From Nitrospirota bacterium (GTDB lineage: Bacteria > Nitrospirota > UBA9217): a stretch of DNA of 64,000 nucleotides. Shown here one piece after another: positions 14,001 to 34,778 of the stretch. The stretch is from the NCBI GenBank assembly GCA_963790205.1, contig CAWBNQ010000005.1, positions 224,001-288,000 of the forward strand, given 5' to 3'. A model generated the notes under the pieces. That model ran no database searches and was not told the DNA's origin. It saw only the letters and a list, made by a program, of their open reading frames with translations. Both the position numbers and the translations under genes were made by a program. Within the stretch, counting starts at the first letter, position 1. Every line of letters starts with the position of its first letter.

Positions 14001-15326
14001 CACCACGCCTTCGCTTTGAATAAATACGGGTTTATATTCCAGTAGCCCCTCATAGACTGAGCCAAATTCTTCGACATTGAGAGCGGCGTAGTTGACGCGG
14101 ATCACCTGACCTGTGTCAGGATGCTGGTAAAGACCAAGCGAACGCAGACAGCCGAGGAGCACATCATTGCCGAGGGTGCAGCCACCGAGTTGACCGATGG
14201 CAAAGGGGCTGAACAGGTCCCCTGCCAACGGTGCGATTCCAAGTTTTTGACCAGGACCACCGGCTTCAAAAAGACGAAAAGTAGTCAGCAATGAAAGCCA
14301 ATGGTCATTCTTGCGGCGGTCGGCTAAATAACGCTTCTCGGAGAGGCGGCGCAGGCGCTGGAGGCTGTAGTAGTGCTCGTATATATCTCGTTTAGAGGCG
14401 TCCGACTTTACGGGAAAGACAAGGCCGCGCTCCTCGATCACCATCAGGAAGAGGAGGCGATAGATCAGCCGTAGCAGGTGTTGGTAGTAGGCATCAGGTT
14501 CCAGTTCGTCGGAGACCACTGTTTGACGAAGTGAATCGTTGGCGGGATGAGCAAGAAACCCATTTGCAAATTCACGGATAGCACTCTCGACCGCACGGCT
14601 CAAACCATCGCGGATGCGCGCGCCGGAATCAAGGGAGTCTTGGTGATAACGCTCAATAATGCACTCTGCCGAAGTTTCGGGCGAGACAGGCAGCCTTGAT
14701 GCATGCAACAGTCGATAAAGAACAGCAAAATCGGCAAACAAACCGTCGTTGAAGATCCTATCAAGATCGAACTCCAGGTAGGTCAGTTTGACAAGTCGCG
14801 AACTATCACGCAGCAGACGAAGCACTCGGCCGTTTGTTACAAGACCGTACAGTCCATCCGTAAGGTTGAGATACTCTTGCACCATTCCATGCGCAGACAT
14901 GCGTAGGACGGCTTTTTCGGGCTTCCTATCCAGCCCCGCCGGCTCGCGATAACCGACGATATGAACTGGGATACGTCCACGATTACTAAGACGGTGGGAG
15001 ATAGCATAAGTCTTACCATTCAATTCCACGCTCTTTTGCTGGTATTCAAGCTCGTAGCCAAGCAAAGAAAGAAACGGGACTACCCAGAGACTGCGCGTTT
15101 CCGTCGTGGCTGGATTATCGACTTTGACCGCTTCCAATTTTCGCTGAAAAATACGCCAATAGTCCTGTGCATCAGCCCAGGCACGGACAATTTCATCTTT
15201 CACCTTTCTGGATGAGTCGAAACCAAAGTCTAGCGGACGTTGGCCGTTAGCTTCTTCGAGCCGAGTCAGAATGTCAGGTGAAAGGATGGCTCCTTCTATG
15301 CGGATGCTTGGATAGTTCATAGGCAT
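11043..15326 (-). CDS. Eco57I/type IIG-like N6-adenine DNA methyltransferase (DrmMI-like) with TRD and extra C-terminal domain
   Basis: GSHYTP, DISCGSGHIL (SAM binding), GVDLNP, GNPPY; N-terminal QEYLN..TNG; LRYSPSKCFDTFPFP TRD end. Confidence 0.9.
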   Translation of the reverse strand: MPMNYPSIRIEGAILSPDILTRLEEANGQRPLDFGFDSSRKVKDEIVRAWADAQDYWRIFQRKLEAVKVDNPATTETRSLWVVPFLSLLGYELEYQQKSVELNGKTYAISHRLSNRGRIPVHIVGYREPAGLDRKPEKAVLRMSAHGMVQEYLNLTDGLYGLVTNGRVLRLLRDSSRLVKLTYLEFDLDRIFNDGLFADFAVLYRLLHASRLPVSPETSAECIIERYHQDSLDSGARIRDGLSRAVESAIREFANGFLAHPANDSLRQTVVSDELEPDAYYQHLLRLIYRLLFLMVIEERGLVFPVKSDASKRDIYEHYYSLQRLRRLSEKRYLADRRKNDHWLSLLTTFRLFEAGGPGQKLGIAPLAGDLFSPFAIGQLGGCTLGNDVLLGCLRSLGLYQHPDTGQVIRVNYAALNVEEFGSVYEGLLEYKPVFIQSEGVVEFDFAPGDQRAVTGSHYTPDDLVQPLIKHSLDYLIADKLKESDREKALLSLRVADISCGSGHILLAAARRIATELAAVRTGEEQPSPAAFRTAVRDVIRECIYGVDLNPLAVELCKVALWLEAHNPGEPLNFLDHHIKCGNAIVGYARWEDVIRGVPDEAFITMPGDDKDISVAFRRRNKSDRANIKQVTLNYSSEILRHRDAVLTRWRELSNLPDRTPSEFDIKKQRYIEFTNSTDAILLEQIAAIPIAQFYLPKTTENQPKLTTDSDFRLYWSGERHPQGQSTAEAWSIAHGKRFFHWFLEFPDIIERGGFDCILGNPPYLGGTHLSGTYGYSFCNYVKWEYAPTGLSDLVAYFVRRIYTLLSPDGITALITTNSIKDGDIRKDGLEQVIVQGGAINFVVRGIKWPGRANIIVSLVGVHKGQWRGKCFIDNREVSVINAYFEDSQDTDAPLVLKQNADVLYEGAKWQGDGFLLNHDEARRMIDRDPRNRDVIFPIINGHELNNHPEQQPEREIINFFDWPLERAQKYSEPIKIVEDRVKPMREKEHDKGAKGKWWIFLRPRMEMTSKIKGLPHCFVAAATTKYLSFSAAPTNIVFSHALKVFTTDRWDLYAVVQSGFHEAWARKYSGALKQDLRYSPSKCFDTFPFPEGLWQTTNAGLTSIGNRYHDHRSTLMRQLWLGLTDIYNLFHDRGMTPSSVAKVSMKTLAESEAGYKGILELRYLHQKLDEAIRDAYGWNNLSLGHDFYEIDTLSENDRIRFTISPGARQEVLKRLLKRNYEIHQQEVNAGLWEEKEVRKVKIVGPESLFLPLLPDIDVDALAATSYPANVSDRTICAAALSIVEYAGVLSSMDHLDALLLATHPEWCKTFLDKKDHAGFRKAVASAPRGLFVETGQSIRWSDCRGHLEQHKAVVIIRAQAEQTINSGLDLLKVKKIFPEGAEAVVKYALKALAQIKTIRTDLLISPEQQAILHIFDQQHKEYALAA

Positions 15327-18202
15327 GCCTCGGCATTCCCGCCATCAGGGAGGAGAATGTAAACACCGAGAAGATCCATTGGCAATACCGGATAAACGAC
15401 CTGAAAACGTTTTGCATCCATAAGTGAACTGAAACGTTCATGGGATTCGACGAGCCGCTTTGATTGTTGCTCGGCAACCTTATCGAACTCTCCTCTTAAA
15501 TTATCAAGAAGTTTAAGTTCGTTTTCCAAGAAACCGGTGCGCGCCTGTGGGGTGAGTTCGGAAGACGCACGGGCCTCGGCCAACAAAACCCTTGCCTGGC
15601 CGTGTTCGAGAAACTCCTTGTCCTGCGGTGTGCCGCGCCATCCCCAGAGCAGCATTTCCTCAGCTACGATCTGGTGTTCACCTTTGCTCTGCTCTATCAC
15701 GTTGCGACATCGGAAAAGCAGCAATGTAGTCTTGGTCTTTACCTGCTTGGTGCGAATGATGGCTGCGCGCGCCGCACATTTATCCACGCGAGCGAGGGTA
15801 TTGGCCATGACAAGCTGACAAAGTTGTTCTACAAAACGGTGGTTACGCCCCAGGTAATGGTAGCCATCGGACGTGGGTGACCGGAAGCTTACTTTGACTG
15901 GATCGCCTTGTGGCAGTAAATCCCTCAACTGGGGCGACATGTTACCCATGACGATTCGGTAACCCTTGGCATCCTTGGTGACCTGCACACCAAGCAGGTT
16001 GTTCAGAACAGAGGTCACGAACTCTTCCACTGCTTTGGGATCGCCTATGGCTTCATCCATCTCACGAAGGTCAGCTTCGATCTCTTGAGCCTTAATGGCA
16101 TTCTGGGCGAAGATGCTACGGGATGCCTTTTCTCTCTCTGCGGCTTCGTCAACTTTGCGGGTGACACTTGCCTTAGCCGAGGCGGCTTCATCAAAACTAC
16201 TGAAGTCGAATTGGATCTGGTGCTTATCACGTTTTTTTTCGATCTGGCGATCAGGATTGAGCAGCAAGGCCTGGGTAATCGTGTCTATGATACTTTGAGA
16301 ATCCTCTGGAAAAGGAACATTGATGCCGGTAGCGCGCTTGATCTCGCGAACCTTGCGTAAGAGCACATCGAGAACGATGCCGTCTATCGGGTTATCCGCC
16401 CCGTAGAGTAGACAAGCCTTTACCTTCGGGGCCATCTGGCCGAATCGATCCACGCGGCCTTCTCGTTGCTCAAGCCGGTTCGGATTCCATGGCAAGTCGT
16501 AATGGAGAACACCGGTAAAGTGTTCTTGCAGATTGATACCTTCGCTCAGGCAGTCGGTTGCAATTAAGATGCGCAACTGAGACTTTCCCATTGCATCTAT
16601 GTGCTGCTTGCGCAGCTCGTCAGGAAGTTCACTCGTTATGACTTGAAGGTCGAGCTTCGGATACTTCTTTTTGAGCGCCGTTTCGAGTTGTGCGCCGATA
16701 TAGTTAGCTGTGGCGATATAACGGCAGAAAACAACTGGGTTGAAGCCTTGCTTTAACCAGTCTTCCAGAATCAGTTCGGCTGAAGCAAGTTTTTGGTCAT
16801 CTTTGATCGAGCTCAATTGCTGCAGTTGCTGGGAGAAGTACCGCATGCGTTCGCGTTGGTGTTTTGTCCAATCATTCCGCTCGATGACCTGAGTGGGCGC
16901 GTTGTCACCTTCGAACCCAAATTCAGTATCACGAACTGGGTTTTCCTCAAACGTTTCCTCACCCGCTAAGGCAGTTTCTGCGTCATCTTTCGCAGCAGAT
17001 GCGAGGTTAGAAAGCCTGGTGTTGAGCATCTCGATACCAGCAGCGGGGCTAGACATCACACCACGCAATAGTGCGAGTGCAGTCCAATATTGGACCCGCT
17101 TCTGGACGCCTCGTTCGGAGTCCGGAGCGATTAGCTTACGAGCAAAGTCGAGGATTTCGTCAAAAAAGTGAGAATAGCTGGTTGAGAGGTCATAGGCCCA
17201 CTCGAAAGCTTCACGCTCAGGGAATGGCGTGTCTTCCCCCATCCATTTTTCGACATCGGCCCGCTTGCGCTGAACAAAGTGACGTGCCAGATCGCGGCGC
17301 TGTGCTTGCGAGGAACTGGGAAGGTCAATCATCTCGAATTCCGGACTGAGCAGGCCGAGCAACGAATGAAATTCCTCGGGCTTCCCGCTGTGCGGTGTGG
17401 CGGTGAGCATGATAAGCTGCTGGTTCGGCTTCTCGGCGATTCTGCTGACAAGATGGTAGCGTTGTTGCTGGCTGGCAGAAGCGCCGGTAGGCCGTGCGCA
17501 GGTATGGGTTTCGTCCACGATCACCATTTCTGGACACTGCTCGACAAATACATCGCGCCTGGTATCGGACTTGATGAAATCAATGCTGATGACTTGGTAA
17601 GGATAGTAATCATAGACACTTGTGTCACCCTGTATCTGCCGGTCGAGTCGTGCCTGGGTGTTGGAGCGAATGATGACCGCCTCAATATCGAGCTTAGCAC
17701 GAATCTCGGCCTGCCACTGTTCGCAGAGATGAGGCAGACATATTACGGCAAAGCGTTTGATCTTGCGTCGCTCCAACAGTTCTTTAACGATGAGCAACGC
17801 CTCTACTGTCTTTCCTACACCGACATCATCGGCAATGAGCAAACGTACCGATTCCTGACGCAAGGCCATGATAAGCGGCACCATCTGGTAGGAACGCGGC
17901 CGGAAGGAGAGTTTTGCCAGGGCGCGAAACGGGCCGGCGCCGTTGCGAAAAGCCAAACGAGCGGAGTCATAGAGCAAGCGGGCTGTGCTGATATCTCCGA
18001 GGTCCAATGCCCCTGGCGACGGAAAGCTCGCATCCTCGGGTTGGTCGGCTTCAATGCCCAGCGGCAGATAAATACCTGCGGTTTCATCGTCAGAGCCACC
18101 AAGCGGTTTGACGATCAAAAGATCTTTATCATCTGATGGGAGGACGATCCAGTCGCGTCCACGGAGGGAGACTAACTTTCCCGGTTGAAGTTGTACTGTC
18201 AT
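15317..18202 (-). CDS. SNF2-family helicase (DrmD-like)
   Basis: LLIADDVGVGKT, DETH, TATPHSG, SEGINLQ, WNPNRLEQREGRVDR. Confidence 0.9.
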   Translation of the reverse strand: MTVQLQPGKLVSLRGRDWIVLPSDDKDLLIVKPLGGSDDETAGIYLPLGIEADQPEDASFPSPGALDLGDISTARLLYDSARLAFRNGAGPFRALAKLSFRPRSYQMVPLIMALRQESVRLLIADDVGVGKTVEALLIVKELLERRKIKRFAVICLPHLCEQWQAEIRAKLDIEAVIIRSNTQARLDRQIQGDTSVYDYYPYQVISIDFIKSDTRRDVFVEQCPEMVIVDETHTCARPTGASASQQQRYHLVSRIAEKPNQQLIMLTATPHSGKPEEFHSLLGLLSPEFEMIDLPSSSQAQRRDLARHFVQRKRADVEKWMGEDTPFPEREAFEWAYDLSTSYSHFFDEILDFARKLIAPDSERGVQKRVQYWTALALLRGVMSSPAAGIEMLNTRLSNLASAAKDDAETALAGEETFEENPVRDTEFGFEGDNAPTQVIERNDWTKHQRERMRYFSQQLQQLSSIKDDQKLASAELILEDWLKQGFNPVVFCRYIATANYIGAQLETALKKKYPKLDLQVITSELPDELRKQHIDAMGKSQLRILIATDCLSEGINLQEHFTGVLHYDLPWNPNRLEQREGRVDRFGQMAPKVKACLLYGADNPIDGIVLDVLLRKVREIKRATGINVPFPEDSQSIIDTITQALLLNPDRQIEKKRDKHQIQFDFSSFDEAASAKASVTRKVDEAAEREKASRSIFAQNAIKAQEIEADLREMDEAIGDPKAVEEFVTSVLNNLLGVQVTKDAKGYRIVMGNMSPQLRDLLPQGDPVKVSFRSPTSDGYHYLGRNHRFVEQLCQLVMANTLARVDKCAARAAIIRTKQVKTKTTLLLFRCRNVIEQSKGEHQIVAEEMLLWGWRGTPQDKEFLEHGQARVLLAEARASSELTPQARTGFLENELKLLDNLRGEFDKVAEQQSKRLVESHERFSSLMDAKRFQVVYPVLPMDLLGVYILLPDGGNAEACL

Positions 18203-21200
18203 CGCACCTTCCTGAAAATATCCGGACGGGCTGCTATTTTCTCGGCCAGGCTATCCCGATAGTAGTATACCCAGACTTCATCGCCGCGGGCAATGATGGA
18301 CTGACGCTTGGATTCATCATCCTCCCGAACCTGCGGTTCATCGTGGGGGGTGCCGTCGCAGAAGACCCAGATACGCGGTTCGTAGTAAAAGTCCGGTTGC
18401 ACATAAATGCCATCAACACGCTTCTGAGCTGCGTCGGGCAATCGCAGGCCATTCTGATAGAGGTAATCCAGGAACTTTCGCTCTGTCGACGATGTGGGAT
18501 CGAGTCCTCGGGAGATGGTTTGATACTGGTCCTCGTAGCTGCCGAATCCTGTATTCGTCTGGATCTCAATATTACAGATGCGCAATTTCTCAAGAGCGTC
18601 CTTGATGAGATGTCGGTCTATGATCTTATGGTCGCGCTGGTTGTAGTAACTCAGAAGATCGTCATAGCTTGCCGGTCCTTTGTAGTTCTCATCGTCGTAT
18701 CGGCACAGAGTGATCGCCTGCTCTACGACTTTATGAAAAGCCTCCACGTCTTCAACAAATTGCGAAAGGATACCAAGGCTGCCTTCTGCTGCTTCATAGA
18801 GAAGGATGTTAGGCGCTTCAGGATCACCCACAGTGACCACACCGATCTCATTGGGCTCGGCCTGGAACACGCTTTCGATGGCGCGCTTCAGCGCATGCTG
18901 CAAGGTGATGACACCCTCGGGATTCAGTCCAAGTGGCTGTATCGGCTCGATATGCAGTGCATCGGCCAAATTCGAGGTCCAGAGCTTAACGAGTCGGAAT
19001 TCCTCTCTTGGATTTTCCTCCGGATCCGGCATTGAGTCTCGCCAGTCGCCGGATACCAATCCGATGGGGAAACCCTCGGCCTGTCGCGATCGCCACTGAT
19101 AATTGACATGAACCAGACGAGCCGCAGGCACGTAACGAAGATTCAGGAAGTTATTTTCAGCCGTACGCGCCGCGGCTTTACGCACGCGCTCCAGATGGCC
19201 GCCATCAACGGAGAAATAGGTCCTGATATTGTACCCGCGGGATACCCGCTCTTCCTCTTCGCAAGAAATCCGGTCAACCTCTTCGGCGCGCGACTCGGCC
19301 ATTTCCAGCAGATCATGAAGATGTTCCTTATTTGCGTTATCAGCGAGGTTGCAGCCGGTGAAAGGACAGATTTCGAGATCTTTCTGCTCATCCGTCAGGA
19401 AGTACCCGGCTTTTGTGCTGATCTTCACCTCGGTCAGTGCGGACTCCGCGTCTTGGACCACTAATTGGGTAACTTTGTATTTACGGCCGTTATGGTAGAT
19501 ACGGTTTAGTGGACCGAACTCTCGCATAGCAATGGCGCGCGGACGCGAGATGAACTCGCCGGAGGCATCGCTGGTGGGTAGGAAGATACGAAGCGGCAAT
19601 CGGGTGAAATTGTACCCGGGCAGAAACCCTTCCGAGGCCAGGTATCTATAGGGATAAAATTCGGATAATTCTGTTGACCTGCCAAGGTCGTTACGCAGAA
19701 GATCAAGCTGGCGGGTGGCCTGATCCTGGTTTCTCTTTTGTTTTTTGTAGTCGTCACTGCCCAGACCAAGTGTACCACTTTCGATCTTCTGTGTAGCCTT
19801 TGTAAGGATCGTTCTAGCCGAGCGATATAGTTTTCTCCAACGGTCAATAGCTTCGTTAAGATGATCAGCCAGTTTTGACAAGTTATGTTCGACCCACTGA
19901 TCCGAATACCAGCTTGCAGCCTTTGTCTCGAGCTCGGGAGCAAAATCCCTGATCACTCTCCTGAATTCTGCCTTGAGCGTGTTGAACTGGTTCGGCTGAA
20001 TGCTGAGGCCGGAGCGAACCGCAGGTGTAAGCGGCATCTTATCGTTGTCATCAACGATGAACCGCATAATAGACGGCCGGGCTTCTCCCTGAGCTTCCAG
20101 ACCAGGCAGGCCGATCTCAGATACGGTTAGGGCGTTCAGGTGCGTCAGCAATAATTCGCGATTACAGAGATCGAGACGAGGAGCCTGTACCACTCCGGCT
20201 ACGAGTTCAGCCTGGTGCTGAAAGTAGTGACGGTCATGAGGCGAGTAGCTTGAGCAGTAGGTGAATACCAGCGCACCTTGTCCGCTTCGCCCCCCACGGC
20301 CTGACCGCTGGGCGTAATTCGCAGGATTGGGAGGCGCATTGCGGAGATGCACAACATTCAGACCGCCAATATCGATTCCTAATTCCATGGTTGGCGAACA
20401 AAACAATGCGCTTACCGATTCACTTCGAATACGCTTTTCATCAAGCTCCTTCTTGGCTTCGTCGAGATACCAATCGGCACGAAAGCGGTCTTCCCTATCC
20501 AGACGGGCTTCGGTGTTCAATTGCCCAGTATGATCTTCAGCTCGCAGCCTTTTAGTCAAAGAGAAGTCGCGCCGGTACATATCTCTGAAAAACGCATTCG
20601 GCCTGGGTGTTTGGTCCTTGTAAGAGCGCCGCTTTATAACGTCGGACTTTACTGTTTTGCCATCGCCGAGCTTCCAAACGATCTTCTCGATCTTGAGGCG
20701 ATAAATCGGTATTTCTTCGTTCTTATCGCTGCGTGCGAGTTGAGACTTGAGATAATCCGCCTGTTCCAGCTTCGTCATCAGCTGGACAATGAAGTTCCGA
20801 TAGTGGTCGCCCTTAAGATTAATCTCCAGCCCACGTTGCCGGACATAGAGTTTAATGAACTTGCCCAGCGCACTGGCCGGTCCCATGCTTTTTGAAAAGA
20901 GTTTTGCGGAGCGGTGCAGTGGCTCATAGCGGATGACAAAAGGTTCCCGTAATCGCTCTTTCTGGTCCAAGGTCCAGGGAGGACGCAGCATCTCAATGAA
21001 CTGCTTTTCGTTTTCTCTGATCGCATTCTGTGTAAGATAGTTCTCGCTATGGATGGCGTATTCAAGGCGGAAGAAATCGAGAATCGTGCAGACAAACTCT
21101 CTGCGGTCGGCATGACTTAAAGCGCTCAAAAGCGGAATGTCCCGCCAGAAGGTATCCTCTGCAGCGACTTCATCCAAGTCCAGATATTCTATGGATAGCA

Positions 21201-23364
21201 AAGCGCATTGCTCCAAGTTCGGCAGGATGATTCGCCAGCTTCGCCGTAGATCCGCAATAGCGCGGTAGAATAAGTAAGTCTGGAAGCACTGCTCATATCG
21301 TCGTCTGACATTTGCCAGCGGCGGCTCTACGTTGGGGGTAGAATAGTCCAGAAACGACAGGCCAAGCGCTCTAAATACCGCCTCGCCAAGATTGGCATAC
21401 GTGAGGGTATTCCCGGAAGCTTCGTGAAGAGCTTTGTAAATGCCGGCACGAAGGCGGACCACTTGCACGAAATCGTTGAAATGACCGGCCTGGAGCGCGG
21501 CATCTTGTCTGTTGTCGGTAAAACTCAGCAGCTTTTGATCTTTCGGACGATATCCGGCATCATTCAGCTGATTAAGGATCGAGAACGCCATAATGGTCGT
21601 TGAGGTGCTGCGTCCCTCACTGCCCAGTTTTGTCAGCTTTGTACCTTCGTTCGTTTTCGTGTCAAAGAAGACACCGCCTGTTGGGTCAAAAAGCAGTGGG
21701 GCCTTCATGAACCATCCCCACCATTTCAGAGGTTTGGTTTCAGAACAATTTCCAAGCTCATCAAAATGGAGCTTAACGGGAAACAAGGTTTTCTTTTTCG
21801 AATCCGGAACCGGTCCGTTTTTTGTCATTCTCAGCCAGGAGTCCGGCAAAAATTCGAAGTCCTCGGCTAGTTCCCAGACATCTTCGCCGACAATGAGATA
21901 GCCATCTGTCGCTTCTTCATCTTCTTCTGTTTTTTCCCGAAACTCTCGCGGTTCCAGCCGATTGCCGACTCTGGACACACATATGAACGCATGTCCCGTG
22001 GCCCGGCTGAACACATTTGGAAAGAGAGGCTTTTTGTCCCCTTCGTCCTTTTTGAAGATACCCGGCTCCAGAGTAACATAGCGATTCTCGTCCTGATCGA
22101 GTGTAGTATAGACCGATCCTGTTTGAGAGATGAACTGATGCAGTTTAAAAGGTAGGATCGTGTAACGTTGCCTGGCTTCCTGCATTCGTTTGTTCACGAT
22201 GCTGATCCACTGCATAAGATCGACGAGGAACTGTCTGCAGATCGTTTCTGACAACCTGGTTTCTTGCATCAGCATAGCGACGATCGTGCCGATCCGCTGG
22301 GGGGTGCGCCGAATAAGATGGCCATCGTGCGTATCCAGCGCGACATTATTTTCAATCCAGACAGCAACGGGGTTGGCCTTCAAACGCTCAATGTCGTCTT
22401 CTGCGTTAATACCCGCCTTTATGGCTGCGGCGAGCTCCGCGCCCGATGGCAATCTACCGGAGAATGACACCGAACGGGCCAAAGTCTCGTTTATGACTTG
22501 TTCCGGCGTAAATGGCTTACCAAAAAGCGTAGTGGCAACTTTAGCGACCTGTTCGCGTTGCGAAGCGGGACTCCCGACGGAAACCATAGTGGCCGAGGTA
22601 CCGATGCAGGTCACCTCTCGGCTGCATTTGGAGCGGATGCGGCGGATCAACATAGCCACATCAGCGCCTTGGCGTCCACGGTAGGTATGGAGTTCGTCGA
22701 AAACGAGAAAACGCAGGTTGCTGTATATGGAATCACGAATGGAACGCTCCCGAACGCGAGTCAGGAGCAATTCCAGCATCATATAGTTGGTCAGGAGAAC
22801 GTGCGGAGGATTCTCGCGCATCTTTTGGCGTGCCTCTTCCTTCTCCTGTCCGGTATATTGCCCAAAGGTTATTGGGAATCCTCTCGCGCCGCTTTCGTAA
22901 TTAGCTTTGTAGCGGTTAAACTCTTCCGATTGAGAATTGATCAGAGCGTTCATCGGATAAACCACGATGGCTGTTACGCCCGATGTCCCGGGATGGGAGA
23001 GCAAATGGTGGAAGATCGAGCCTATATAGGTCAGAGACTTGCCGGATCCCGTACCAGATGTGACGATGAAATCCCTGCCTGCGGTCCCAAGACGTATTGC
23101 TTCAACCTGGTGCCGGTACAGTGTATATCCTTTAAAGATGTCCGCCGTGTCGGCATGTAAGGCGCCGGACCGTGCAAGATCCGAGACGCTGCCAGACATC
23201 TCGTATGCGGGGTTAAATTGCAAGAGAGGCTCGGGCCACAGTTTACCAACGCGAAGATCCCCTTCTACTACCGCCCGTAAAGTCGGATCGGCAATATTAA
23301 GGAAGCTGCGAATATAGGTCGCGTAGTCCGAAACGATATGCGAGTGCGTCTTGAAAACGTTCAT
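18199..23364 (-). CDS. large DEAD/DEAH helicase with DUF1998-like domain and C-terminal Vsr/DUF559-like nuclease
   Basis: GTGSGKS, DELHTY, TSATM, SPTMELGIDIG, YAQRSGRGGR; LYEAAEGSLG...LLSYYNQRDH; PDFYY...FCDGTPHD. Confidence 0.88.
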   Translation of the reverse strand: MNVFKTHSHIVSDYATYIRSFLNIADPTLRAVVEGDLRVGKLWPEPLLQFNPAYEMSGSVSDLARSGALHADTADIFKGYTLYRHQVEAIRLGTAGRDFIVTSGTGSGKSLTYIGSIFHHLLSHPGTSGVTAIVVYPMNALINSQSEEFNRYKANYESGARGFPITFGQYTGQEKEEARQKMRENPPHVLLTNYMMLELLLTRVRERSIRDSIYSNLRFLVFDELHTYRGRQGADVAMLIRRIRSKCSREVTCIGTSATMVSVGSPASQREQVAKVATTLFGKPFTPEQVINETLARSVSFSGRLPSGAELAAAIKAGINAEDDIERLKANPVAVWIENNVALDTHDGHLIRRTPQRIGTIVAMLMQETRLSETICRQFLVDLMQWISIVNKRMQEARQRYTILPFKLHQFISQTGSVYTTLDQDENRYVTLEPGIFKKDEGDKKPLFPNVFSRATGHAFICVSRVGNRLEPREFREKTEEDEEATDGYLIVGEDVWELAEDFEFLPDSWLRMTKNGPVPDSKKKTLFPVKLHFDELGNCSETKPLKWWGWFMKAPLLFDPTGGVFFDTKTNEGTKLTKLGSEGRSTSTTIMAFSILNQLNDAGYRPKDQKLLSFTDNRQDAALQAGHFNDFVQVVRLRAGIYKALHEASGNTLTYANLGEAVFRALGLSFLDYSTPNVEPPLANVRRRYEQCFQTYLFYRAIADLRRSWRIILPNLEQCALLSIEYLDLDEVAAEDTFWRDIPLLSALSHADRREFVCTILDFFRLEYAIHSENYLTQNAIRENEKQFIEMLRPPWTLDQKERLREPFVIRYEPLHRSAKLFSKSMGPASALGKFIKLYVRQRGLEINLKGDHYRNFIVQLMTKLEQADYLKSQLARSDKNEEIPIYRLKIEKIVWKLGDGKTVKSDVIKRRSYKDQTPRPNAFFRDMYRRDFSLTKRLRAEDHTGQLNTEARLDREDRFRADWYLDEAKKELDEKRIRSESVSALFCSPTMELGIDIGGLNVVHLRNAPPNPANYAQRSGRGGRSGQGALVFTYCSSYSPHDRHYFQHQAELVAGVVQAPRLDLCNRELLLTHLNALTVSEIGLPGLEAQGEARPSIMRFIVDDNDKMPLTPAVRSGLSIQPNQFNTLKAEFRRVIRDFAPELETKAASWYSDQWVEHNLSKLADHLNEAIDRWRKLYRSARTILTKATQKIESGTLGLGSDDYKKQKRNQDQATRQLDLLRNDLGRSTELSEFYPYRYLASEGFLPGYNFTRLPLRIFLPTSDASGEFISRPRAIAMREFGPLNRIYHNGRKYKVTQLVVQDAESALTEVKISTKAGYFLTDEQKDLEICPFTGCNLADNANKEHLHDLLEMAESRAEEVDRISCEEEERVSRGYNIRTYFSVDGGHLERVRKAAARTAENNFLNLRYVPAARLVHVNYQWRSRQAEGFPIGLVSGDWRDSMPDPEENPREEFRLVKLWTSNLADALHIEPIQPLGLNPEGVITLQHALKRAIESVFQAEPNEIGVVTVGDPEAPNILLYEAAEGSLGILSQFVEDVEAFHKVVEQAITLCRYDDENYKGPASYDDLLSYYNQRDHKIIDRHLIKDALEKLRICNIEIQTNTGFGSYEDQYQTISRGLDPTSSTERKFLDYLYQNGLRLPDAAQKRVDGIYVQPDFYYEPRIWVFCDGTPHDEPQVREDDESKRQSIIARGDEVWVYYYRDSLAEKIAARPDIFRKVR

Positions 23365-26936: not shown

Positions 26937-27011
26937 GACCTGATGAATCGCGATTGCACATGTTTCATCGGGCCGAGGCATTCGGATTCCAAGTAAATTG
27001 TTATCGCTCAT
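26937..27011 (-). pseudogene. 5' stub of a gene cut by the IS481-like element
   Basis: MSDNNLLGIRMPRPDETCAIAIHQV runs into the TGT end. Confidence 0.35.
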
Positions 27012-27022
27012 AGTGATCTTAT

Positions 27023-27119
27023 GCTGTCAGATAACGCATTGCGCATAACCTGCGGCGTATGTGCCTCTCTTCCGCAGACTAACTTATGGCCGCCAGATAG
27101 ATACGTTTTATTAGACAGA
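27023..27119 (-). other. attC-like imperfect hairpin
   Basis: Minus strand TCTGTCTAAT...GTTATCTGACAG, with inner pairing cataa/ctgcgg with ccgcag/ttatg. Confidence 0.55.
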
Positions 27120-27134
27120 CGCATTAGATGGCCC

Positions 27135-27665
27135 TCAAGCCGATTCGGACGACCGGTGATAGAGGATCACGGCGAGCACACCGGCAAGCATGTACTGATG
27201 GCTTTGCTCCATCTGGTCGAAATGTGTTTAACCACGAACTATGGCTGCCTGGATACGACCCGAGGTGGCCTTCACTAGATCGGCCTGCGCGGCGTCGCTG
27301 AAGCCACCTTGTTCCAAGAGCACGATGTAGTCATTCGGACTCAGTCTCGATCCGTCTGAGTTGACCCATATTCTGCCCTGCTTGCGGACGCCCCAGTTTA
27401 ACCGACTCTGCACACACTCAGCCAGCACATCCTCGCTGTCGTGGTAGCGGGACGGAGGATCACAGGAGTCAAGTTCCACAATAAGCTCGTTGAGAGGTTC
27501 TGCGAAGCTGTCTTCTTCGGGCTCATACCGCTTGGCATCGTGGTCCCACGACAGTTCCCAGTTGCTGCGGATGTGCGACAGGGGACGAAGTACTTCATGG
27601 TCAACCCAGTCGCTCCAGGCAAAGAAGTCCCCTACAGTGGTCATTCGGCCCCCCTGCGACATCAT
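27135..27665 (-). pseudogene. cassette-like hypothetical gene with in-frame TAA at 27228-27230
   Basis: Frame continues RG*THFDQMEQSHQYMLAGVLAVILYHRSSESA* to just before the hairpin. Confidence 0.65.
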
Positions 27666-27669
27666 AAGT

Positions 27670-27727
27670 TCTGTCTAATGTTAAGGCTTCTTTCTGAACG
27701 CTTTATTCAGAAAGAAGCTGGTTGGAC
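27670..27727 (-). other. attC-like hairpin at the downstream end of the IS91-like module
   Basis: Minus strand GTCCAAC (RYYYAAC), stem CTTCTTTCTGAA/TTCAGAAAGAAG, then ATTAGAC. Confidence 0.6.
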
Positions 27728-27985
27728 TAAGCCGTTGCGCGCCACGTCGCTATGGGATTTCAAATGATTTGTCAGCTTAAAACGAAGTCCGCGGAGACAG
27801 CATTGGCAGGGGCGTGAGACTTGTTCGGGTGAAAAGCGGCGATTCCGGACTGCTCCGCAAGCCCCTTTCGTAAAAGACTATACAGGAAAAAGGGCTTTTG
27901 GGCAATAGGGTATCGTTGCGAAAGACGTGACTTTTTTCGGGGATGGATGTCGGAGTCGGGTTGTTCATTTCAGTGCTTGTGGTAA

Positions 27986-29179
27986 TCATATTCGCGGCGG
28001 TCCTTTGCAGCGCGCGGGCTGCATGATCTCGATTGTGCGCATTCTGCGTTCGCCGCAGGCAGGGCATTTGGCCACGTCAATGCCGGCGATCCTGAGCAAA
28101 GCTTCCTGCCACGTCTCAGTCTTCTGCTCCGCCTCGTTCTGATCAACGCAGGCCAGAAGCTCTCTGCATTGGTCGAGTTTCTTTCTGCGGCATCTGTTTC
28201 CCAACAGACCGTAATGCCTGATTTTGACAAACCGGTCGGGCAGGACATGAAGCAGGAACCGCCGGATGAACTCATCGGCGTCCACGGTCATGATCTTGCT
28301 TTTGTTGCTGTCCGCGTAGTCGCGCCACCGGAAGGAGATCTTGTCGTCCATCATCTTCACGAGCCGGTGATTGCTGATCGCGATACGGTGGGTGTATCTG
28401 CCGAGATACTCAAGAACGCCTTTTGTTCCGTCGAACGGCGGCTTACAATAGACGACCCACTGCTTCTTGTACAAATCGGCGATGAAGGCCTTGAAAACTC
28501 CCGGCGACGCAAGATGGCTTACGACGCCGGGGTAGACAAGTTTGTTCTCGGCACGGAGTTTTTTCAGATAAGCGAGAAACTTCCCCCGAAAGAGTTTCGA
28601 CATGACCTTGACGGGAAGGAAAAAGCCATTCTTGCATGATTTCCATTTCCGTCCGCCCTTGGACAATCCGCCGCCGGTGACGATGTTGTGGAGATGCGGA
28701 TGATCCATAAGGTTCTGTCCCCAGGTGTGCAGGATCGAGATAAAACCGATTTCCGCGCCCAAGTGTTTCTGCGTATTCGAGAGTTCCGTCAGGGTTTCCG
28801 AAACGGCCTTGAACAGGATCCCGTAGAGGGCCTCCTGGTTCCGGAGCACAAGGGGATTGAGTTTATCGGGGATGGTAAAAACGACATGGAAGTAAGGAAT
28901 GGGAAGCAGGTCTTCTTCCCGGGCCTCGATCCACTGCTCTTTTTTAAGGAACTGGCACTTGGGGCAATGCCGGTTTCTGCAGGAGTTGTACGAGATCACT
29001 TTTGTCCCGCAGTGCTCGCATTCGTCCACGTGACCGCCTTGGTCGGCGGTGCGGCAGGTCTCGATCGCCCGCATGGCGCGAAGACGATTCAAGGGCATGG
29101 GATGAGCGTTCCGGTAAAGAGGACCGTACCGGCGAAAGATGTCCGCGACTTCGATCTGTAGGCTATCTCGCGTGTACAC
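27986..29179 (-). CDS. IS91-family (HUH, Y2) transposase
   Basis: Zn domain CRT..CEHC..YNSCRNRHCPKC, HVVFT, LHTWG..HPHLH (HUH), YLGRY. Confidence 0.95.
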   Translation of the reverse strand: MYTRDSLQIEVADIFRRYGPLYRNAHPMPLNRLRAMRAIETCRTADQGGHVDECEHCGTKVISYNSCRNRHCPKCQFLKKEQWIEAREEDLLPIPYFHVVFTIPDKLNPLVLRNQEALYGILFKAVSETLTELSNTQKHLGAEIGFISILHTWGQNLMDHPHLHNIVTGGGLSKGGRKWKSCKNGFFLPVKVMSKLFRGKFLAYLKKLRAENKLVYPGVVSHLASPGVFKAFIADLYKKQWVVYCKPPFDGTKGVLEYLGRYTHRIAISNHRLVKMMDDKISFRWRDYADSNKSKIMTVDADEFIRRFLLHVLPDRFVKIRHYGLLGNRCRRKKLDQCRELLACVDQNEAEQKTETWQEALLRIAGIDVAKCPACGERRMRTIEIMQPARCKGPPRI

Positions 29180-29200
29180 CGCGGGTGTCGCGTGTGCAGG

Positions 29201-30058
29201 CTACGAGGTTTGTGGAGGATTTAAGAAGGGGCCTAAGTCCAGAGGGCTCACGATCTTTGAGAGGTTCTTTTTGCTCACGTGGAGATAAATAGTGGTCGTT
29301 CTCACCGACGCATGGCCGAGCAGAAGCTGAATATAGTGCAGATCAGCTCCCGACTCCAGCAGGTGTGTGGCGAAGCTATGCCGAAGCGTGTGACAACTTG
29401 CCGGCTTCGTGATGCCGGCTTTTTTCTTCGCGCGTTTGAACGCCTCTTGGACGGTGCTAATGGAAATGTAGTTTTCAGGCTTTTCTCCCGGAAAGAGCCA
29501 ATGCGTCGGTCTATATTCTTTCCAGTATTCCCGAAGCGCTTCCAGCGCTACCTGGGATAAAAGGGTATACCGGTCTTTTTTGCCTTTGCCCTGGTCCACG
29601 CGTATCAGCATACGGCTGCTGTCGATGTCCGTGATCTTGAGCCGGGCGGTCTCGCTCGCCCGGAGCCCTGCCGAGTAGGTCACCATCAGCATCACGCGCT
29701 GCTTCAGGCTGGGAGTGGCTTCGAACATGGCCTGTACCTCCTCCCGTTCGAGAACGATAGGAAGTGTCTTGGTCGTCTTCGGATAGGGAATCTTGTCCAT
29801 CACCCAACCTTTGCCCAGCGTCGTTTCATAGAGGAACCGCAGCGCGCTGTAAGTTATCTTCAGGGTGGATAGCGATACCTTCTTATCCCGGACGAGGTAA
29901 AGCAGATACGCTTTGACATCGCCGTCTTCCAAAAGGTCGGGCGGTTTTTTAAAATGGCGTTCCATATCGCGCGCCGCCCGGTGATACAATGATTGCGTCT
30001 TCGGGGCTAATCCTCGAAGCACCATGTCGCCCTGCATCTGTTCTTTGAACGTTTCCAT
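29201..30058 (-). CDS. tyrosine recombinase, IntI-like but lacking the integron-specific insertion
   Basis: GLRASE, GKGKKDR, HTLRHSFATHLLE, LLGH..TTTIY, C-terminal SPLD; AAGGAG RBS. Confidence 0.93.
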   Translation of the reverse strand: METFKEQMQGDMVLRGLAPKTQSLYHRAARDMERHFKKPPDLLEDGDVKAYLLYLVRDKKVSLSTLKITYSALRFLYETTLGKGWVMDKIPYPKTTKTLPIVLEREEVQAMFEATPSLKQRVMLMVTYSAGLRASETARLKITDIDSSRMLIRVDQGKGKKDRYTLLSQVALEALREYWKEYRPTHWLFPGEKPENYISISTVQEAFKRAKKKAGITKPASCHTLRHSFATHLLESGADLHYIQLLLGHASVRTTTIYLHVSKKNLSKIVSPLDLGPFLNPPQTS

Positions 30059-30341
30059 TGCATAATCTCCTTCCGTTGAATCGAAATTCCAACGGCATGA
30101 CGCCGATGGTGATGCGAAAGAAGATTGTAGAACGGTCAGGATTATGAAGCAAGGAGCGAGACGAAGAAAATCTATCGAGATATGCGGGGATGAATTGTAG
30201 AGAGACTTATTGGAATGCGAATAACACCGCCGCGCAGCGGCTTAGTTCAATAAGTGTTTATCTTGCCGTCTCCGGCTAGGAAAGACCGATTTTTCGGTAT
30301 TTACCAGTTTGCGATGATTGTGCCTAGTTTTAATTTAAATA

Positions 30342-30370
30342 ACTATATTCCTGATCGACAGTATTGTCAA
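30342..30370 (-). promoter_or_regulatory. near-consensus sigma70 promoter pointing into the recombinase module
   Basis: TTGACA-17 bp-TATAGT on the minus strand. Confidence 0.75.
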
Positions 30371-30468: not shown

Positions 30469-30888
30469 TTACAAATCTTCAATCCACAGTAATGATTTGC
30501 CAAGTGGCGTACTCTTTAGCGCGGCATAGAACTTTTTGTCTGCAGTGACAAGACGGCATTCTTGAGTCTGTGCTACAGAGAGGTATAGACTATCATAGAA
30601 AGATCGTTGATAGCGTTTTGCTATTGTCCAAGTAACATCGAGAATCATTTCGGAAGAATAAATAACAAGAGGTATACGTCTAAAATCCAAAAGAATTTTT
30701 GTAGCAGAATCTGCGTCGATTTCCTCAGCCCTCCATTTTTTCCACAGAACATTTCCGAATTCCGCGAAAATGAGATCCGGGGCTAAGAGCTCAAATTCCT
30801 TATTGAGTAAGCGCAGCGCTTCGCGCGAATGAATCTCCGGCAGAAACCATTTGACGGATACGCTTGCATCAACAACATATTGCTTCAA
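30469..30888 (-). CDS. vapC: VapC/FitB PIN toxin
   Basis: VVDASV, AEFGN, SFYDSLY, LVTADK. Confidence 0.92.
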   Translation of the reverse strand: MKQYVVDASVSVKWFLPEIHSREALRLLNKEFELLAPDLIFAEFGNVLWKKWRAEEIDADSATKILLDFRRIPLVIYSSEMILDVTWTIAKRYQRSFYDSLYLSVAQTQECRLVTADKKFYAALKSTPLGKSLLWIEDL

Positions 30889-31115
30889 CGGTCTCGGTCC
30901 TCTCTGACCAGGAAGGCGCTATCGCTAAACTTCTTGCCAGCAAGACGTTTCTGCCAGTCCCTGGCTACGTTTGAAGCTTCGGCCATTGATAATTTTGCTG
31001 CGTTTTGCAAAATTATTTTTACCTCTCCCTGCAGTGAACGTTCATGCTGCTTGGCTCTCCTCTTGAGACGCTCGATTGTTTCCTTTTCCAAATCGCGAAC
31101 TAGTAGCTGCGCCAT
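30885..31115 (-). CDS. FitA-like ribbon-helix-helix antitoxin
   Basis: MAQLLVRDLE...LKRRAKQHERSLQGEVKIIL; overlaps the toxin start. Confidence 0.88.
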   Translation of the reverse strand: MAQLLVRDLEKETIERLKRRAKQHERSLQGEVKIILQNAAKLSMAEASNVARDWQKRLAGKKFSDSAFLVREDRDR

Positions 31116-33462: not shown

Positions 33463-34320
33463 TTACGCCGCCTCTTCTACGTCGGCTCCCCGGTTAAGTA
33501 TGAAATCAACGGCCTTCTGCGCCTGGGCTGCTGCTGAGATAATCATTTTTTTGTCGGCCTCAAGCTGCTTTCTCCAATGTTCGATGTAGGCTGCCTGGTT
33601 TTCGATGGTATCGTTGTCAATTCCGGTGTGCCCGCACAGGAAACTTGCTCCGCACTCTGCGATCAGCTCCTCTTTGGAATATTCCGGAGATCCGAAGGCG
33701 TGTTTTTCCACGATCCCTTTTCTCCCGAGCCGGGATGCGGCGCCCGCGGCATGGACTGCCTCATGATAGAGGGTGGCATAATAGCTCGCCTCCGACGTAA
33801 ACGAAGTCCTGGGCGGCATCCTGACCAGGTCTTTTGTACTGCTGTAGCTTGCCTGCGCAAATCCGTGCTCAATTGCCGGCGGGCTCGGCATCTTGCTGAT
33901 TACTTCTTCACACGACAGGATAGGATTGAATTTCTCCGCTGCCGGTTCATCGGGCGAAGTCAAACCGTCAATTTGTGCAAGATTAAACACGGTGTAGTAG
34001 CGCATGAACGGGATGTCTTTTTGCTCCATGTCGCCGCTGGAGCTCTCGACCTGCTTCGTGGTCCAATTCCAGAATATGACCGGGGTCCCCTTCTCGCCCT
34101 TCCTTACCTGTCCGCCTCGCTCGGTTGCCTGCTTATAGGTGAGCCAGTACGGTGAGGCATAACCCTGCATCGCGGTCAAGAGAATGTTGAGCCCGCGATA
34201 AGGCTTCCCGGTGACAAAGTTCCTTGGTGCTCCGCCGCACTTCCAGGGCTTGCGCCACGGGATGGTGCCCTCGTCGAGCGCTGCCAGAATCCGGTCGGTA
34301 ATGACTTCATAGACTTTCAT
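33463..34320 (-). CDS. ardC: ArdC-family ssDNA-binding antirestriction protein with zincin-like domain
   Basis: PWRKPW, YRGLN, WLTYKQA..GGQVRKGEKG, VFN, HEAVH, YSKEELIAE. Confidence 0.92.
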   Translation of the reverse strand: MKVYEVITDRILAALDEGTIPWRKPWKCGGAPRNFVTGKPYRGLNILLTAMQGYASPYWLTYKQATERGGQVRKGEKGTPVIFWNWTTKQVESSSGDMEQKDIPFMRYYTVFNLAQIDGLTSPDEPAAEKFNPILSCEEVISKMPSPPAIEHGFAQASYSSTKDLVRMPPRTSFTSEASYYATLYHEAVHAAGAASRLGRKGIVEKHAFGSPEYSKEELIAECGASFLCGHTGIDNDTIENQAAYIEHWRKQLEADKKMIISAAAQAQKAVDFILNRGADVEEAA

Positions 34321-34355
34321 GTTTCTGTTCCTCCCGCTGTTTTTTTGCATAAGCC

Positions 34356-34778
34356 TCACCCCTTCTTCATCATTCCGTTGTCGCAAAAACTGAAATACTT
34401 TCCCTCGCCGCCTATAATCACGTGATCGAGCACGTTGATGCCGAGGATTTCTCCGGCCTGACAGAGCCGCTTTGTTAAAAGAATGTCCTCCTGGCTTGGC
34501 TGCGTATCTCCTGAAGGGTGATTGTGACCTATGATGATATTTGCCGTTGCCTTAGTGACCGCAAGCCGGAACGTTTCTCTTGGATGAACTATTGCGGCTG
34601 ACAGGCTGCCAAGGGAAACAAGGTCGGCGTATTGAATGACGTTCTTTGTGTTGAGCCCGAGTATCCAGAAGTGCTCCTTTTCTCTGTCGTGCTCCTGTTC
34701 AAAATTAAGCAGGGAAAACAACACCTCCGACACGTCCTTCGAGCAGCAGATTGCTTTTTTCTTCTCGCTGACTATCAT
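34356..34778 (-). CDS. RadC-like JAB domain protein (short form)
   Basis: EHF..L, VHPRE, HNHPSG...S.ED, LDHVII. Confidence 0.92.
   Translation of the reverse strand: MIVSEKKKAICCSKDVSEVLFSLLNFEQEHDREKEHFWILGLNTKNVIQYADLVSLGSLSAAIVHPRETFRLAVTKATANIIIGHNHPSGDTQPSQEDILLTKRLCQAGEILGINVLDHVIIGGEGKYFSFCDNGMMKKG

Follow-up and report, generated by a model that had tools for sequence, protein, structure and literature searches.

Besides ISShvi3, ISfinder lists further members of the IS91 family in which a tyrosine recombinase (YR) gene lies upstream of the transposase gene, and we know of no settled answer to the question of what the recombinase does in these elements. The YRs of IS91 elements have been assigned to an integron-like subgroup that lacks the insertion typical of the integron integrase IntI (10.1101/542381, as far as its accessible text goes), and ISShvi3 was noted beside an attC site in a Shewanella integron as a new cassette structure (PMC9229058, accessible sections). 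In the window studied here, a stretch of 64,000 nucleotides from a Nitrospirota bacterium (contig CAWBNQ010000005.1, positions 224,001 to 288,000), such a gene pair belongs to a mobile element that is an IS91-family member in integron-cassette format, is present in multiple copies and occupies the first position of a host attI without integrase. The element resembles ISShvi3 and the other YR-bearing members in the order of YR and then Y2 transposase and in its integron-like YR without the IntI insertion; the published descriptions, in their accessible parts, give no ends, target rule or YR role, which are defined or proposed here for the present element. The gene pair as such has already been catalogued, and what we define are the ends, the two-box target, the element's own hairpin and an internal oriIS-like motif. 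A literature search that lacked most subscription journals and did not extend to ISfinder or supplements found no account of ends, targets or mechanism for YR-bearing IS91 elements.

The genome carrying the window (G000, with contigs C1, C3, C5 and C6; other G-numbers denote genomes compared and L-numbers loci) contains seven full copies of the element, four of them identical, two with one shared substitution and one longer by a base. All seven begin with TTGAAC and run through the terminal hairpin to CCTTAACA, which is followed by the TT of the flank; the common ends therefore define the unit as 27679-30250 (2,572 bp). The base preceding the TT start is A in the window copy and G in the other six, and the A of ATTGAAC is therefore target DNA. 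An earlier note on this locus had let the module run from ATTGAAC to GTCCAAC; both motifs are present, yet the first base belongs to the target and every copy continues beyond GTCCAAC through the hairpin. The proposal of that note that the enzyme module is itself mobile and formatted as a cassette is borne out by the seven copies with their shared ends, TT start, complementary arm, terminal hairpin and R↓TT crossover (the arrow marks the point of exchange). Downstream of the seven copies lie seven different sequences, so no passenger was seen travelling with the element. In addition, G000 has three truncated right ends of related elements; the truncated copies compared have no break motif in common and hence gave no sign of one-ended rolling-circle products. 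At one of them (G000:C3:667035, L133), the truncated right end is followed by a cassette with an unrelated gene that starts with TTGGACTAAGCC, 12 nt like the left end of the element, a likeness due to chance or to a remnant.

Profile searches matched the YR to PF00589 and PF13495, and to the integron integrase profile TIGR02249 with 204.6 bits, in two stretches and below the cut-off of 265. In the alignment, a gap replaces the insertion of roughly 35-40 residues that is present in two host IntI proteins, in agreement with the earlier note, and by this feature the YR is not an integron integrase. The residues R133, K161, H223, R226, H249 and Y258, which we take to be the catalytic ones from known YR motifs, are present and all six are invariant in the alignment. 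The second gene product matched PF04986, PF14319 and NF033538 (471 bits against a cut-off of 125), and with its HPHLH and YLGRY motifs it is an HUH/Y2 transposase of the IS91 family.

In canonical IS91-family copies (L141-L144), the left end consists of a tetramer, 3 nt and a GC palindrome, whereas at the right end the element extends four bases past a CCTAT motif, up to the target tetramer (cf. PMC13181058, accessible part). The left end of the present element has the same layout, GAAC-N3-GC palindrome as a terIS, offset 2 nt inward from the end, and relatives keep it. The oriIS-like motif matches the IS91-type right end of L143 at 12 of 18 positions (manual alignment), and its CCATA core is kept in nearly all relatives; instead of adjoining a target tetramer at the right terminus, it lies inside the element, and the right flanks read TTA or TTG, not GAAC or CAAG. 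Thus the element is like IS91, IS801 and IS1294 in transposase family, terIS-like left end, oriIS-like motif and absence of target duplication, and differs from them in that no tetramer target adjoins oriIS, an arm and hairpin of about 70 nt follow the motif, the terIS tetramer has two extra bases before it, and a YR stands in place of orf121.

With integron cassettes the element shares the TT start, a complementary inverse core, a terminal hairpin, a wobble bias of the bottom strand, crossover at R↓TT and insertion at attI. Its terminal hairpin, which the earlier note had described and which turned out to be the element's own end, is more stable than expected by chance (z -3.8 and -5.0, with none of 200 shuffles as stable), and compensatory changes affect 9 of its 12 predicted pairs among 22 chosen ends. 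Core and inverse core are complementary and the crossover lies at the triplet, as in a cassette. In contrast to attC sites, where the spacers measure 5 and 5-6 nt and extrahelical bases are present, the 13-bp stem is unbroken and the spacers measure 3 and 7 nt, and the canonical attC finder did not pick up this end. Further differences from cassettes are the element's own enzymes, A↓TT where cassettes have G↓TT, and a sister group that uses TTC/GAA. When joined, the two ends fold with -32.3 kcal/mol on the bottom strand and -31.7 kcal/mol on the top strand. Among mismatches of the junction stem in 33 distinct related end pairs, G-T accounts for 51 on the bottom strand and for 3 on the top strand, and 39 are neither. 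In genomes with several copies (L008-L011 and L014/L015), the left TT is constant and the second right-hand base varies, which places the crossover at N↓T or NT↓, outside the GAAC tetramer. By the features tested, the element is neither an integron nor a canonical IS91 and appears to work like a cassette with its own enzymes.

All five distinct targets in G000 read AA-N7-↓TT, with AA at positions -9/-8, as expected of a two-box YR core; the background for AA at these positions is 5,812 of 79,215 R↓TTR sites, or 7.3% per site. Relatives were examined at 28 genome loci, at 80 of 519 metagenome loci and at 20 further loci from relatives; the tallies omit L012, L060, L065 and L123, which have other triplets, and the right end of L033, duplicate flanks were removed, and the crossover was shifted by hand in ten loci before tallying. 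The relatives share a constant end design of arm, short spacer, unbroken stem, 7 nt and crossover, and form two groups by core triplet: one has AAC/AAT with RTT as its partner, the other TTC with GWA. An A at -9 of the left flank was found in 22 of 34 AAC/AAT-type loci and in 1 of 29 TTC-type loci, 28 of which have T (Fisher 2e-7). Right flanks start with TT in 42/44 AAC/AAT-type and 3/40 TTC-type cases (AA in 25, TA in 6), and position -1 is G or A in 61 of 63 left flanks. As judged from these flanks, the triplet of the element and its target boxes switch together between the groups, from AAC/GTT to TTC/GAA. Six YR residues separate the AAC/AAT and TTC groups; among them D239, which IntI and XerC also have, is replaced by S in the TTC group, and residue 239 is a candidate specificity position. 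In one relative (the copy at L010:5808), the insertion is reversed and lies at the left box of an attI of the type found in the window, which suggests that both attI boxes can be used. At L008, L011, L014 and L015, relatives occupy palindromic sites with a 6-nt spacer near other tyrosine recombinase genes, and G405, home of L008-L011, has a second YR-bearing multi-copy family of about ten near-identical copies.

The fixed ends of the copies, the target pattern, the complementarity of the ends, the covariation in the hairpin, the intact catalytic motifs and the internal oriIS-like motif point to a common explanation: the element probably uses its own YR to integrate, in the form of a folded single strand, at two-box recombinase sites, of which attI is an example. 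In this process the two ends would first join into a circle. In the folded bottom strand, the left end would pair with the R''-like arm and, together with the terminal stem, make up a recombinase site with a predicted spacer of 7 nt on the cut strand and 3 nt on the partner strand. Against a double-stranded site AA-N7-TT (or N6), the YR would then carry out the exchange of a single strand pair at R↓T, which replication would complete, as for integrons and CTX phage. The accessible texts describe cassette integration by folded-strand exchange completed by replication (PMC9345347) and, for CTX phage, a folded single-strand attachment site, one YR strand exchange and a rolling-circle source of the strand (PMC3442271). 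With regard to these last three features, the element would work like CTX phage and the integrative mobile elements exploiting Xer (IMEX), from which it differs in having its own YR rather than host XerCD, many targets rather than dif (five different ones in G000) and no phage genes. The least certain step concerns the HUH transposase, which may act on the circle as a rolling-circle initiator and source of bottom-strand copies instead of performing strand transfer, a plausible role about which we are slightly more doubtful than confident. A chromosomal nick at the oriIS-like motif would release a strand that lacks the hairpin, and an initiator acting on the circle therefore suits the arrangement better than a transposase that defines the end. 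Self-insertion by its own YR would explain why some IS91 elements carry such a gene.

An end-to-end joint was seen in one of eight runs: in run X1, a single contig (depth 4.9, with 37 nt on the short side) joins 30248 to 27677, 2,572 back, i.e., the right end onto the left end. A second pass over four runs gave no end-to-start joint among the joints listed.

Several observations weigh against integration by the element's own YR. The joint in X1 could equally be given by a circle or by a head-to-tail tandem, and L062 is a tandem of related elements. The energies of the joined ends are almost equal on both strands. At the left end a terIS-like site is conserved, so a cut by the transposase may occur there. 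A at -9 is missing from 12 of the 34 AAC-type targets, in some cases owing to a 6-nt spacer. A fixed crossover does not account for what is seen in the TTC group: on both sides, the base that follows the crossover varies (on the left, AA in 17, TA in 9 and other in 3). On a quick tree, the members of this group fall into one or two branches, so that the triplet switch represents one or two evolutionary events and not 63, although each insertion is still a separate choice of site. Finally, G000 itself has IntI, and a split IntI is found in G404, one of the five other element-bearing genomes searched.

A different assignment of roles would have the HUH transposase carry out strand transfer by a rolling circle with shifted nick sites, and the YR merely bind two-box sites, guiding insertion or later resolving its products. 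A cut by the transposase at bottom-strand AA↓ would yield identical N↓TT junctions, and the conserved terIS-like layout of the left end, the intact HUH and Y2 motifs and the absence of target duplication are in agreement with it. We consider it unlikely, because the IS91 family chooses its target by a tetranucleotide beside oriIS (PMC13181058, as far as accessible), whereas here conservation spans the junction, includes the purine at -1 and reaches a second box 8-9 nt away; moreover, the six catalytic residues of the YR are invariant and the oriIS-like motif is internal.

The insertion site belongs to the host. The promoter TTGACA-17-TATAGT and the half-site AGATAA-N7 reported in the earlier note are both present (30342-47/30365-70 and 30251-63). 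The 150 nt upstream of the element are 89% like G000:C1:565217-565353, and of 63 other genomes in the family, 23 have homologs of promoter and site. At 24 other such platform loci that were fetched, most have TT at the equivalent crossover, 7 also have the TTGACA-17-TATAGT pattern, 9 have a canonical attC at most 1.5 kb downstream, and no YR, IntI or transposase match was found within up to about 1.5 kb per side (less than 1 kb upstream in three). In G135, the homologous site adjoins a full, divergent IntI; with an intI-linked attI as its homolog, the window site is thus an attI that lacks its integrase locally. With attI and cassettes but no intI nearby, it matches a cluster of attC sites that has no integron integrase (CALIN), with attI. 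An attI and Pc linked to an integrase outside the array, as in an integron, are not found, since the YR gene is part of the first unit and thus on the downstream side of the crossover. The place expected for intI, immediately upstream of the attI promoter, is taken by a pair of FitA-like antitoxin and PIN toxin genes (30469-31115). On a larger scale, SNF2 and DEAD/MrfA helicases on one side (15317-23364), which are presumably a DISARM-like pair, and ArdC plus RadC on the other (33463-34778) make the region look like a genomic island.

The host has IntI genes of its own. Three IntI matches exceed the cut-off, on C6, on C3 and about 180 kb away on C5. The C6 IntI (G000:C6:108704-110381, L129) seems split into two frames, an upstream one of 234 aa and a catalytic one of 311 aa; the C5 IntI is a single frame of 493 aa, and many IntIs of the family measure about 490 aa. 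A relaxed attC finder tuned to the short attC of the host gave 78 raw matches, of which 39 were listed and about 26 accepted by eye as canonical; with a fixed 6-nt spacer nothing useful was obtained in the host genome. Four of the seven element copies are located at attI-type sites and at least three precede canonical attC sites; besides the window copy, three copies share a second attI, one of them heading a full array on C6. Two of the five distinct targets have no attC within 1.2 kb downstream.

These findings would also fit a plain IS91-YR element that gained an attC and that host IntI mobilises as a passenger cassette, also to attG sites, the more so as IntI is said to insert cassettes at GWT genome sites (accessible part of 10.1101/2022.09.11.507474) and ISShvi3 has been described as forming a cassette structure (PMC9229058, in part). 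We judge this decidedly improbable. The hairpin has neither attC geometry nor extrahelical bases, the TTC/GAA group breaks the GTT rule, and the published attG consensus, in the accessible text, does not contain the AA box at -9/-8. Furthermore, elements with this end design are found in genomes without detected IntI, from Bacillota and others; none of the five other element-bearing genomes searched has an IntI over the cut-off, among them G401 with two copies and G405 with five intact copies seen.

The full model of the earlier note, in which the module serves as integrase to a self-mobile capture platform and draws in the cassettes downstream, bears on the same loci. It draws on the lack of intI at the 24 other platform loci, on the lack of an IntI match at E ≤ 1e-60 in 9 of the 23 platform-bearing genomes (several incomplete, G010 being 100% complete), and on the inverse core of the passenger next to the element, which ends in AAT and would fit the A↓TT left by the element. 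However, the platform is family-wide and mostly occurs without the module, the host has IntI and canonical attC, and cassettes downstream of elements carry canonical attC (7 of 32 AAC-type loci and 1 doubtful case in 13 TTC-type loci, each with at least 700 nt downstream). No passenger is common to the seven copies. A genome scan for passengers with module-type ends gave 27 raw matches, of which 8 are element ends and the others look like unrelated palindromes. The check proposed in the earlier note, for cassettes bounded by module-type ends around homologous modules, covered 45 downstream regions, with raw matches in 6, one of them a second element copy, and no cassette was recognised. We therefore give little credence to promoter, half-site and passenger as the module's own capture system.

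Table 1. Features of the element and its surroundings (positions in the window).
Feature	Position	Strand	Remarks
Mobile element	27679..30250	minus	2,572 bp; same two ends in seven copies
Left end	30229..30250	minus	TT + GAAC + 3 nt + GC palindrome (30229-41); R'-like box and terIS-like site
Tyrosine recombinase (YR), 285 aa, integron-like subgroup	29201..30058	minus	profile matches, alignment
IS91-family HUH/Y2 transposase, up to 397 aa	27986..29179	minus	profiles; HPHLH at 160, YLGRY at 258
oriIS-like motif	27750..27764	minus	inside the element, about 70 nt from right end
R''-like arm	27721..27741	minus	ends GTCCAAC; complementary to left end; inverted pair
Terminal hairpin (hairpin 1)	27679..27720	minus	unbroken 13-bp stem 27686-27718, 7 nt to crossover, no extrahelical base
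Pc-like promoter TTGACA-17-TATAGT	30342..30370	minus	putative; TTGACA 30365-70, TATAGT 30342-47; host DNA outside the element
attI-type site without neighbouring intI	30251..30330	minus	left box AGATAA 30258-63, 7-nt spacer 30251-57, crossover after 30251
Passenger integron cassette	27035..27678	minus	core TTAGACAGA, inverse core 27110-19
Passenger gene, about 169 codons	27135..27644	minus	in-frame TAA 27228-30
Degenerate or atypical attC of passenger (hairpin 2)	27029..27116	minus	position fits; inverse core ends AAT; G↓TTATCT at 27035
Stub of next cassette	26938..27034	minus	ATG at 27011; cut by IS481-like element

The passenger next to the window copy consists of a single gene between core and inverse core. 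The perfect 10-bp inverted pair described in the earlier note (ATTAGACAGA at 27670-79 and TCTGTCTAAT at 27110-19) is present (for a 9-mer no more than 40 nt from the stop, the chance is about 1.5e-4), but the gene is broken by an in-frame TAA. Close homologs, among 97 in all, measure 165-169 aa and carry Q at the position of this TAA, which is either a mutation or an assembly error; no Pfam or NCBIfam match was found for the gene. In G308, a homolog lies between two canonical-looking attC sites (read by eye). The second hairpin of the earlier note does end in GTTATCT, but its stability is at the level of shuffles (z +0.87 and -0.26). It was not detected by the canonical attC finder, itself tuned to short host attC, has no Rfam match and gave two short, weak matches alone (37 and 24 nt, E 0.004-0.008) in 400 other genomes; read as a plus-strand attC or as a module-type end, it fits neither well. 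From these features we take the passenger to be an ordinary host cassette in decay, with an atypical attC. The IS481-like element that cuts the next cassette begins near 26937, where multi-copy matches start (26936-38); its NF033577 match is below the cut-off.

The exact ends, the target rule, the predicted fold and the natural specificity switch make the role of the YR testable by a few mutant assays. If the element does integrate by its own YR, neither the IntI insertion nor extrahelical bases are needed for a YR to recombine folded single strands, and the entry sites of integrons host a self-inserting parasite able to push cassettes away from the promoter. Tentatively, and with some doubt, the element and its relatives might constitute a distinct autonomous class of single-strand integrating elements, in which the IS91 transposase would serve as initiator, an insertion-less IntI-related YR would integrate the folded strand, and the triplet would have been reprogrammed at least once. 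Such a class would offer a living model of a single-strand recombinase as it was before IntI, and its R'-like box, composed of TT and the terIS tetramer, would provide a link between the ends of IS91 and attC.

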